The notes beneath the pieces were generated by a model. It worked only from the letters and a program-made list of their open reading frames with translations. It was not told the origin of the DNA and did no database searches. This document shows, one piece after another, positions 4,961-53,140 of a stretch of DNA of 64,000 bases. The number at the start of each line of letters is the position of its first letter. Positions within the stretch are counted from its first letter, which is position 1. Source of the stretch: Octopus vulgaris (taxonomy: Eukaryota); assembly GCA_951406725.2 (NCBI GenBank), contig OX597816.1, positions 49,166,001 through 49,230,000 of the forward strand. The letters are read 5' to 3'. Position numbers and translations under genes: made by a program.

Positions 4961-6388
4961 AGGATCGAATAGTAATAACATGAAGTTGTCTGCCACGATA
5001 CATACGTTGGTAAATCATTGCCAGTTTCCTATTTAATAAACGAAAGCTATAAGACAAATGGTTATTTACGTTGGTTTCACATGCTGATAATGTAAGATTT
5101 TATCTCTTATAGACACAAATACGCATACACTTATATATCAGCTCTATATATACGTACAAACACACACATATACTCATATATAATATAATTTAAATATACG
5201 TATAGATACGTTTATAGGCATAGTTACATAAAAATACACACACATGTATATTTATGTATGCAGATATGTATATAAAAATATATTTATAAACACTCATTGC
5301 GATGAATATAAAAACGTATCAGATCGCTTGCCAAAGAGCAAATTAGGTGTCAACCTTTGCAGTTTTAATGAATGGAAATTATATGTTCATTAATCGTTAT
5401 TTACTATAGAGACGTCGAATTTTGCTTTTCTTGGCAGATTACTCTGTAATTAGACGTAAATGATCAGATTCATACGATTTATTGTTTGTGATTTGTTTCA
5501 TGCGCATTATGGCTGCGTCTTACCAAAATATGCTTCCCTACATTGTCATCATATACAAGGGTACACAAAGATAAGTGTGTGGCTTACTATTCACAAGAGT
5601 ATACACACACACACACACACGTTTGCATTAATGTTTGTTTCCTTGTGAAATTGTACACACAATAATATATATATATATAAACATACATGTAATGAAACAT
5701 AAAATGAAGGATCACTAAATACATTTAAGTAGAGCATTGCAATAATATGTTTTAACAAATAAAATGCTGAGACACAATGTCAACCTTTCTTTGTGTAAAA
5801 TTAAATTATACACACACACACGTAAACATTCACATGCAAAGACACATATTTACACGTAAACATTCACATGCAAACACACATAGTTACACACATATATGTG
5901 TATAACTAACGTTGGAGTCAGTTAATGTCGAGTTCCTTATTTAACGGCTTAATAATTGACAACATTGCACAAAATAAAGTTTTAAATTACTTGTTGATTA
6001 TATGCTACTTGTTCACGTATCAACTCATGTCTATATAGGCTATTAACATCTCACAGACATTATCATCTTTTCACCTATCCTAATACAGGTAGACACTGCA
6101 TTCAGTAACTTCAACACACTGCATTTATAATTACAAAACTTCTCATAAATTACATTTATTCAGTATACCACATTCCATTTTTTCTTACTTATTACCTACA
6201 TCATTGGATTTATAGGTCTATAGATTTATAGGTCTCTCTCTCCAGCCTCACCCTTTGTGATATATAAACACAATGTAAAATTACATTGATGGATCTCTTA
6301 GCACGTTTTAGTAGAGTACATATTCATTAACAATGATAAGGAAAATGTTGAAAGGAATTTCGAAATTCCAGCTCGTCTCTTTCATCAG

Positions 6389-6432
6389 ACAGTCCAATGA
6401 AGACAAGCGTGTCGAAACTTCGAAGTCACTGT
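6389..6432 (+). ncRNA. Degenerate type I hammerhead motif (Penelope pLTR-like)
   Basis: acagt-CCAATGA-a-GACA-agcg-TGTC-GAAA-CTTCGAAG-TC-actgt. All three stems pair and stem III is palindromic, but the core differs from CUGANGA at 2 positions. Confidence 0.6.
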
Positions 6433-6510
6433 TAAGTTTATTACTCATATAAGTCAAATGACTGAAACATGTAAAACAATAAAACAATAAATCTATACAT
6501 ACACACATGC

Positions 6511-50699: not shown

Positions 50700-50788
<89 letters not shown>

Positions 50789-50906
50789 AATCAAGGAACG
50801 GCCATAATAGGCCATTCACCCACTAGAAATAACAGCCAAAAGCTTTAACCGCAAAATAACATTAATTCCGTAAACCAGGAGAAAATTGAAAAACTTTTAC
50901 CCTGTA

Positions 50907-51013
50907 ATTTCTTAGACGATGCACCGTTTCATCTACCGTTTAATGGTAAACTAACCTGATTAAATTAAATCAAGCCAATCCACCATAGGCCCTTAGACTC
51001 ATCAGTAAGAAAT
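50907..51013 (-). ncRNA. Intact type I hammerhead ribozyme (mirror copy)
   Basis: Reverse complement of 51443-51549. Confidence 0.9.
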
Positions 51014-51442
51014 AGCCAAGTCGGAACAGATATTTTTCACGAGGCATTCCTCTTGCTACCTCGGCAATATCTGACCTAAAATCTTCAAATCGTCGCACTC
51101 GCGCCAAATTTATCGGCAGCAAATAAATATAAGCCACCGATTCCATTACGGAACTAACCAGAAAATTCATAATTAATCAATATAGGGTGGCAAAAAAATT
51201 TTGTAGAATTCTTTTGCCACCAACGGCCAACGTTGGTGGCAAAAGAATTCTACAAAATTTTTTTGCCACCCTATATTGATTAATTATGAATTTTCTGGTT
51301 AGTTCCGTAATGGAATCGGTGGCTTATATTTATTTGCTGCCGATAAATTTGGCGCGAGTGCGACGATTTGAAGATTTTAGGTCAGATATTGCCGAGGTAG
51401 CAAGAGGAATGCCTCGTGAAAAATATCTGTTCCGACTTGGCT

Positions 51443-51549
51443 ATTTCTTACTGATGAGTCTAAGGGCCTATGGTGGATTGGCTTGATTTAATTTAATCAG
51501 GTTAGTTTACCATTAAACGGTAGATGAAACGGTGCATCGTCTAAGAAAT
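51443..51549 (+). ncRNA. Intact type I hammerhead ribozyme
   Basis: Stem I atttctta/taagaaat (8 bp). CTGATGA at 51451-57. Helix II gtcta/tagat capped by a long G-U-rich hairpin. GAAA at 51526-29. Stem III acggtgcatcgt. Predicted cleavage after GUC at 51541. Confidence 0.9.
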
Positions 51550-51770
51550 TACAGGGTAAAAGTTTTTCAATTTTCTCCTGGTTTACGGAATTAATGTTAT
51601 TTTGCGGTTAAAGCTTTTGGCTGTTATTTCTAGTGGGTGAATGGCCTATTATGGCCGTTCCTTGATTGTGATGTTGAACGTAAAAATGGTTTATGACTAT
51701 TTAATTTTTTTCCCACTAGGCCGTTGGTGGCAAAAGAATTCTACAAAATTTTTTTGCCACCCTATATTGA

Positions 51771-51811
<41 letters not shown>

Positions 51812-52230: not shown

Positions 52231-53140
52231 CGTGGTGGTATCAAAACGTTCCCAGACTAGTTATGTAGTCCGCCAACAGATGGTAGAAGACGGTTGCATG
52301 CATAGTGTGAGGTAGCAGTGATCTCCATGAGGCAGTGACCTCCATGAGGCAGTGGCATTCATGAGGCACTGTGCCGAATGACATTGCTGTGTCTCCTTCA
52401 CGAGTTGGCAAATTTGGGTTTTTGTGATCACGTGCATGATGCAGTTTGCGACTTTTGTTATGGACCGGAAGTTAGAACAAAGGGCCAACGGGAAAGGTTG
52501 CGTTAGACTCGAGAAGTTCGCTACAGAGACATTGCGCATGCTTCGGCAAGCTTTCAGCAACGAGGCAATAGATCGTATGCGATGTTTCGAGTACCACAGG
52601 CGCTTCAAAAGCGGAGGAACATCCGTGGAGGTCTTAGAGCGATCTGAAAGACCTCACACGACTCCCGGAAATGTGGGGAAACTTCATTAGCTTGTGCATG
52701 CGGTTTTTCGGAGGACAATCAAAGACATTGCTGATGTTGCTCTGTGGTAGTGGTGCGGGCAAGCAATGCTAACATCTGGATTCTCCATAACGACAATATA
52801 CCCTCTCGCCGAGCTCTCCTCACTCGTAATTTTCTCTCCACACCCAATCTATTCGCCAGATTAAAGAATCTGCGGACTTCCATTTCTTCTCCAACATGAA
52901 AATGCAACTCAAAGGTCGCCGCTTAACACCGTTGTCGAGATCCAGATCGAATCGTAGGAGGTCCTCGACTCGCTTACGGAAAACGATTTCTAGGACGGAT
53001 CCCAAAAATTGCAGGATAGCTGCGGCCAGTGCATTGTTGTACAAGGTAACTATTTCGAAGGAGATGATGTTAAAACTTAGGTAAATAAATTATTCTTTAT
53101 TAAGCATAACTTAGTCCGGGGACTTTTTGATACCACCACG
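52231..53140 (+). mobile_element. Internally deleted mariner transposon
   Basis: TA|cgtggtggtatcaaaa ... ttttgataccaccacg|TA TIRs with TA TSD. N-terminal MDRKLEQRAN...ETLRMLRQAF...RRFKSGG and C-terminal WILHNDN...FFSNMKMQLKGRR. A 17-bp tandem repeat lies near 52323-52370. Confidence 0.9.

Follow-up and report, generated by a model that had tools for sequence, protein, structure and literature searches.

The window, i.e. the whole 64,000-nucleotide stretch of Octopus vulgaris DNA analyzed here, contains a 995 bp element (50784-51778) made of two arms arranged head to head between two (TA)n tracts, on which both outer ends border directly (Table 1). One arm is the direct copy described in a sequence-only reading of this DNA. 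As stated there, region 51231-51287 is repeated exactly at 51722-51778, with a spacing of 491. The other arm, which that reading missed, is a 442-nt inverted copy located 5 nt upstream of 51231 and 100% complementary to 51231-51672. The element does not start at 51231. Nor is terminal redundancy its defining trait: 5’ ends differ between copies and 3’ ends are fixed, and the 57-nt redundancy is only the combination of a random 5’ start and a fixed 3’ end. What had been read as 1.1 copies of a permuted circle is an insertion of two arms placed head to head, in which RT starts at two fixed sites, A and B. The site A module is internal within the window's direct arm.

Table 1 Features of the two-armed element and of its borders (window coordinates).
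Feature	Positions	Strand	Basis
(TA)n target, left flank	50700..50783	.	(TA)n flanks in most family insertions
Inverted arm (unit positions 1-442) with start site A at the outer 3’ end	50784..51225	-	complementarity and mapping
Hammerhead of the inverted arm, predicted cleavage at 50915	50907..51013	-	
Arm-arm junction, 5 nt	51226..51230	.	
Direct arm (a 491-nt unit and 57 nt more) with start site B at the outer 3’ end	51231..51778	+	
Type I hammerhead, predicted cleavage after C51541	51443..51549	+	motif, fold, covariation
Site A module, conserved hairpin and single-stranded U-rich stretch ending at 51672	51639..51672	+	unpaired probabilities
106-nt "tail" between sites A and B, including the site B hairpin (51726-51761) and a single-stranded stretch	51673..51778	+	
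(TA)n target, right flank, TSD unreadable in the window copy	51779..51807	.	

The unit has a GC content of 37%, and no stop-to-stop frame of at least 100 aa is found in the window element. Each strand carries a single hammerhead, so that no monomer can be released and the window copy is a dead-end product. A transcript through 50784-51672 would fold into a perfect hairpin of 442 bp, from which small RNAs against the family might arise. Further along the window, region 52382-52690 contains a mariner-type transposase fragment (Pfam HTH_48, E=0.00018, below the curated cut-off).

The type I hammerhead proposed from the sequence is intact. Stem I is formed by 51443-51450 and 51542-51549, the CUGAUGA and GAAA motifs are at 51451 and 51526, and the GUC triplet is at 51539-51541. 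Stem I has 8 bp, stem II has 5 bp and a 19-bp hairpin extension, and stem III is palindromic. Across the family, 203 of 207 units keep an intact core. On its own, stem III has marginal stability (-0.2 kcal/mol), but the dimeric form is strong (-17.5), a behavior described for animal hammerheads (PMC4209133). A GGCU at 51438-51441 could pair with the conserved GGCC of the stem II internal loop (51465-51468); this candidate tertiary contact is retained in only some old copies. The Rfam covariance models gave no hammerhead match at gathering score, and none of the 53 matches at E<=10 is a hammerhead family. The length of stem II (68 nt) may be the reason. Matches to Rfam miRNA families were rejected as stemming from the central palindrome of the element.

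Every helix listed in the sequence-only reading is found in the unit. Folded as a circle, the unit reaches -144.8 kcal/mol, with a z score of -5.7 on the plus strand versus -3.55 on the minus strand (100 shuffles each), and the fold contains 29 G-U wobble pairs on the plus strand versus 2 on the minus strand. Forcing the active ribozyme into this fold costs only 3.8 kcal/mol. Sites A and B each consist of a conserved hairpin followed by a single-stranded U-rich stretch. An alignment of 14 units, 90% of whose cells pair, shows changes on both sides in 17 of 155 pairs; stem I contributes 3 of these, stem II 4 and stem III 1. This level of covariation was reached by none of 500 shuffles, a count that is not a probability as the 14 sequences are related and belong to few groups; the structure used for the comparison also comes from one of these sequences. 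When the consensus was folded without guidance, the two end hairpins, the long-range helix, stems I and III and the extension of stem II all reappeared.

The genome (2.8 Gb in 227 contigs) was searched for tandem copies, as the earlier reading had suggested, and dispersed 490/491-bp arrays of up to about 18 units were found on many contigs. At least 204 matches to the unit were obtained with 40 of 1,047 candidates scored, and the long matches listed are 97-100% identical. A relaxed ribozyme pattern retrieved 2,123 units, versus 0 for the reversed control, which indicates several subfamilies. The family is young and non-coding. Older subfamilies have units of 474-489 nt that share 80-85% identity with that of the window. 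One array-forming subfamily with a 474-bp spacing and a different stem II (G000:C1:8313348-8314162 and 35672709-35674853) has identical ribozymes, which suggests that it is young as well. Canonical-looking hammerhead motifs are also seen in unrelated repeat families (L069, minus strand, ca 6369-6448 on that strand; L034; L073). Outside the assembly, the element is present in contigs from four public runs under three organism labels (4 of 23 listed); two of these runs are presumed to be RNA. Variants in these contigs include a cleavage triplet that reads GUA instead of GUC, an altered free core position and a palindromic loop with TATA in place of TGCA, each compatible with a hammerhead.

For the analysis of insertions, 59 loci were fetched. 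Four were dropped, one that overlaps locus L148 (L149) and three fragments (L033, L108 and L138), leaving 55 insertions and 95 arms in a sample biased toward close, long copies. TSDs of about 14-15 bp are readable in the four loci with non-TA letters (L015, L113, L143 and L173); pure (TA)n masks the TSD in most of the 42 loci scored.

These features are those of metazoan non-LTR retrozymes, as accessible in two accounts: AT-rich tandem units that do not code for protein, each containing a type I hammerhead with a palindromic stem III, dispersed as dimers to multimers, with TSDs larger than 4 bp and co-occurrence with Penelope-like elements, PLEs (PMC7229834; 10.64898/2026.07.22.740005). Every non-LTR retrozyme feature that can be examined in a sequence is present, and the element is a non-LTR retrozyme variant. 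At 474-491 nt, the units exceed the 150-450 bp given by Cervera and de la Pena (2020, PMC7229834) and fall within the 51-972 bp given by Li et al. (2026, 10.64898/2026.07.22.740005). The 19-bp stem II extension is a difference. Circles and cleavage were shown for published retrozymes, whereas the octopus element is known from its sequence. In line with the earlier proposal, the retrozyme reading is supported by the dispersed arrays, intact cores, covariation, TSDs, lack of an ORF in the arms and the monomer bottleneck described below; the anatomy is the part that was misread.

That reading had kept open that the unit is the pLTR of a Penelope element. No PLE ORF or protein match lies inside the arms at any of 89 loci, and the unit is not homologous to any pLTR of the autonomous families identified here, so that this alternative is not supported. 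A broader version of this idea, in which truncated pLTRs or a satellite of an autonomous PLE were amplified by DNA recombination and the RNA structure is incidental, can draw on an architecture and a target identical to those of autonomous PLEs and on PLE ORF fragments in the flanks of 10 of the 89 loci, and local amplification from pLTRs was proposed by Li et al. (10.64898/2026.07.22.740005). Besides the empty arms and the lack of pLTR homology, dispersed insertions with TSDs, multimers in both arms of 20 of 38 insertions and compensatory changes across subfamilies argue against it, and we consider it very improbable.

A search with Pfam GIY-YIG (150 of 6,136 candidates scored) identified two young autonomous families, N1 (L064:244-5460) and N2 (L243), together with older PLE families. 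Both have an upstream ORF1 and an intact RT with a C-terminal GIY-YIG domain (781 aa in N1, 775 aa in N2), a CxxC-type linker as in Neptune/Nematis and (TA)n targets. Their tails are about 40 nt (N1) and 33 nt (N2). With its full 4,271-bp tandem copies and many long two-armed copies, N2 shows the closest likeness to the retrozyme. No autonomous partner with a homologous pLTR is found among these families. Nhmmer searches of the fetched PLE loci with the unit or the family profile gave nothing below E=1, except a 53-nt stray piece (L033). Among the first 100 of the 2,123 ribozyme matches, inspected by eye, no same-strand pair lies 2-5 kb apart, and a pattern with the same stem III and a short stem II gave 0 matches. 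None of 18 N2 and 2 N1 pairs has a clean informative TSD to match a partner.

(TA)n tracts are landing sites common to PLEs and the retrozyme. An intact N2 ORF starts about 640 nt from retrozyme insertion L137, a proximity that may reflect the common target alone and that could also be counted for the pLTR or satellite explanation. One N1 end abuts retrozyme insertion L144. A further GC-rich PLE family, 29% identical to N1 (L142:251-2265), likewise shares the (TA)n tract at its end with a retrozyme insertion. The pLTRs of autonomous elements contain, by eye, minimal hammerhead-like motifs (L064:640-690 and L181:2200-2250) with changed core pairs: U3-A8 in N1, a pair already described (PMC4209133), and apparently A3-U8 in the L181 family.

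Mapping of the arms onto the unit revealed a simple rule. The 3’ ends of the arms are at unit position 442 (site A) or 57 (site B), 106 nt apart, and the 5’ ends are scattered. Among 94 arm ends, 29 are exactly at 442 and 35 exactly at 57. Of the 40 two-armed insertions, 38 have one arm ending at each site; none has two A ends and none two B ends. In the remaining two, one end is masked (L151) or odd, at unit 480 (L168). The choice between A and B is not independent in the two arms, since independence would give at most 50% of mixed insertions. One-armed insertions (n=15) end at B in 11 cases and at A in 4; one locus (L012) has a 13-nt inverted B stub. The two arms do not correlate in length (Spearman 0.12), and in 20 of 38 insertions both are multimers. 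The 42 arm-arm junctions show microhomology (20 cases, 1-11 nt), filler (16) or a blunt joint (6).

The rule extends beyond the young family. In older subfamilies, all 8 two-armed loci among 25 have one end of each kind (6 by script, 2 by eye). The autonomous elements follow it too: among the first 100 of 821 listed N1 ends, 8 of 8 head-to-head pairs read by eye associate one short arm with one tailed arm, a count that leaves out one tail-to-tail pair, and 18 of 18 readable N2 pairs (19 fetched) keep the rule. Exceptions are an old autonomous copy with a tail on both arms (L181) and one locus that ends beyond the tail (L068). An inverted arm could in principle be a fold-back of long reads or an assembly artefact, and the window arms are 100% identical over 442 nt. 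With flanks that are not mirrored, arms that end at different fixed sites, TSDs and the same pattern in four families, there is virtually no chance that this is the case.

The head-to-head inverted arm, one-sided tail and (TA)n target are Penelope-type insertion features, and all are present. EN+ Neptune/Nematis-type PLEs similarly show partial tandems, an adjacent inverted 5’-truncated copy, a tail at one end, a (TA)n bias and TSDs, according to the accessible descriptions (Craig et al. 2021; PMC3846280). The octopus element differs in having no RT or GIY-YIG ORF, a full hammerhead instead of minimal variants, and a tail of 106 nt versus 30-40 bp in published PLEs and about 33-60 nt in three autonomous families of this genome. 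In the PLE papers, as far as their available text goes, the tail is "optional" or "usually on one end", whereas nearly all readable copies of the octopus element carry it at one end and one only. For retrozymes, the text available from PMC7229834 and 10.64898/2026.07.22.740005 mentions neither two fixed 3’ ends nor inverted second arms. The view of animal retrozymes as non-autonomous PLE derivatives was already argued for vertebrates, with no mollusc sampled (Li et al., 10.64898/2026.07.22.740005). We consider it very likely that the octopus retrozyme is mobilized by a PLE. It would be a non-autonomous, non-coding element of the metazoan non-LTR retrozyme kind, moved in trans by a Penelope-like RT/GIY-YIG protein targeting (TA)n.

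Sequence variants indicate how many templates were used per insertion. Substitutions per site amount to 0.0033 within arms, 0.0029 between the arms of a locus and 0.0125 between loci. At diagnostic sites, 25 of 30 loci have two fully matching arms and the other 5 show a single difference; permuted arms agree on average in 4.1 and at most in 11, with 21 haplotypes in the sample. It is therefore likely, with little reserve, that both arms derive from one template. Twelve locus-private variants, spread over 10 of 43 loci, are fixed or nearly so across arrays. Counting arrays with 3 or more covering units, we find 93 fixed variants, 3 that are missing from one unit, 16 partial ones and 116 confined to a single unit. 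The latter recur between loci near chance (9 vs 6.4). No units with at least 2 unit-specific variants common to two loci were found, so that no unit pattern is inherited. Fixed variants without inherited unit patterns imply that new variants pass through a single unit, which matches what copying round a monomer circle would predict. In addition, 216 of 217 crossings of the cleavage junction are free of indels, which makes template jumping unlikely.

Some arrays depart from this scheme. Of the 16 partial variants, 4 are in the longest array (L148), and 5 of 104 minority variants occur in both arms, the other 99 being confined to one. Such variants indicate that some arrays were reshaped later or arose from mixed templates; some single-unit differences may be assembly errors. 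One may envisage twin priming on a linear, partly cleaved multimeric transcript, long arrays growing later by unequal exchange. Perfect junctions suit uncleaved multimers equally well. Three loci (L113, L137 and L146), in which both arms stop at 322-347, resemble copies of cleaved linear monomers, L148 has blocks of common variants, L159 has one variant in the same register in both arms, and the autonomous N2 also has full tandem copies. Yet a multimeric template does not readily account for locus-private variants fixed in all units and both arms with no unit-specific sets inherited between loci, nor for arrays of about 18 units despite a 5’ truncation expected to shorten them at each generation. 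We regard the linear template as improbable and a circular monomer as the probable one.

The 5’ ends bear a possible mark of ribozyme cleavage. None of 94 ends is in the 30 nt before the cleavage site (unit 281-310) and 20 are in the 30 nt after it (311-340), a clustering with a scan statistic of P=0.0006. The stop rate at 311-340 is 3.9 times the background, approximately one stop per ten passes. In one insertion (L179), both arms stop at 312. The pile-up extends over 311-340, with only 3 of 94 ends in 310-313, and has no sharp peak at 312. The best fit would be run-off at a cut template and subsequent trimming; pausing at the hairpin within 311-340, just downstream of the site, could produce the same pile-up.

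From these data, the following mechanism can be proposed. Tandem arrays would be transcribed, hammerheads would release 491-nt monomers, and these would be ligated into circles. The endonuclease would nick both strands about 14-15 bp apart, as judged from the TSDs. On a shared RNA, each 3’-OH would then prime its own cDNA, with one start at A and the second at B, 106 nt away. The pattern of ends is directly visible and the priming is our interpretation of it; such a pattern would be expected with a protein dimer seated on the two hairpin-plus-single-strand modules. Each RT would circle the monomer 0-18 times, often halting where the template was cut by the ribozyme. Finally, the cDNA ends would be joined through microhomology or short filler, as the junctions show, giving a head-to-head insertion with a tail on one arm only. 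As a whole, we find it reasonably probable that both ends of a staggered break serve a Penelope-type RT-endonuclease as primers for two cDNAs on a single RNA, probably a circular monomer.

Twin priming is known for L1, where priming by the opposite strand as well produces a 5’ inversion with a microhomology joint. The second L1 primer anneals at variable internal sites, whereas here the second start is fixed and both arms can be multimers.

A closer parallel is the Poseidon element of Anolis, PAc (Frangieh et al. 2024, PMC11167929). In the available text, the protein cuts and extends both strands in vitro at an AT-rich target, starts RT at two internal sites that delimit the tail, and is a predicted dimer. 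PAc differs in being autonomous, with start sites inside the ORF; in that text, the sites are not assigned to the two strands of a single event, and the term "circular" is absent. Extension of both strands from both tail borders in vitro makes paired priming the simplest account of the A and B ends. Some points temper this parallel, within what is available of each source: in vitro, the two strands showed no difference in start site and ribozyme cleavage was unnecessary for insertion (PMC11167929), and only 1 of 9 Xenopus retrozymes cleaved in vitro (Li et al., 10.64898/2026.07.22.740005). Moreover, uncorrelated arm lengths are not an obvious outcome of a synchronous RT pair.

Alternatively, a single TPRT event could be followed by fold-back self-priming, the first cDNA being copied into the inverted arm and its end being set by the endonuclease at the other tail border. 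This would also give one haplotype per insertion. Microhomology at 20 of 42 junctions, near-palindromic centers in some copies including that of the window, and 5’ positions within 25 nt of each other in 9 of 38 insertions (about 4 expected) are in its favor. Self-priming is the reading given in PMC3846280, and Craig et al. ascribe the tail to EN-mediated resolution, as far as these sources are available. However, the two 5’ positions are mostly unrelated, with a median distance of 102 nt. The A arm is much longer in 10 of 38 insertions and the B arm in 18; either arm being the longer one, the fold-back copy would have to be cut at B after a start at A and at A after a start at B. The confinement of 99 of 104 minority variants to one arm goes in the same direction, although such variants would tell little had they arisen after insertion. 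In vitro, RT starts on RNA at either border of the tail (PMC11167929, in its available text). The comparison of arm lengths and mirrored variants only weakens fold-back, which we hold to be unlikely, somewhat less so than the linear transcript. Priming of both arms on RNA is, in our view, the better supported of the possibilities, with a confidence close to that given to the circular template.

In the consulted portions of the literature, the origin of the tandem and inverted PLE insertions and of the one-sided tail is called unresolved (Craig et al. 2021; PMC11167929), and the genomic return of animal retrozyme circles is proposed only (Li et al., 10.64898/2026.07.22.740005). Our survey, which covered papers outside Repbase/Dfam and supplements, found no description of this family, of a 106-nt tail or of a counted one-of-each rule with single-template evidence; an earlier account may exist.

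The octopus element provides a counted rule for Penelope-type integration: one arm per start site, one template per insertion, and stops at the ribozyme cut. The one-arm-per-site rule holds in the resident autonomous elements too. The significance lies in this mechanistic readout more than in the element itself. With a short RNA and two intact candidate enzymes, N1 and N2, the question of Penelope integration can be tested directly. More generally, paired priming may be obligate in EN-bearing Penelope elements, a dimer holding one RNA at both tail borders and each break end being extended from one site; we give this idea slightly less than an even chance. If true, a ribozyme-made circle would lead to double rolling-circle reverse transcription, the tail, inverted arm and tandems would be explained in one step, and the 491-nt RNA would be a minimal template, reduced to two landing modules and a ribozyme.
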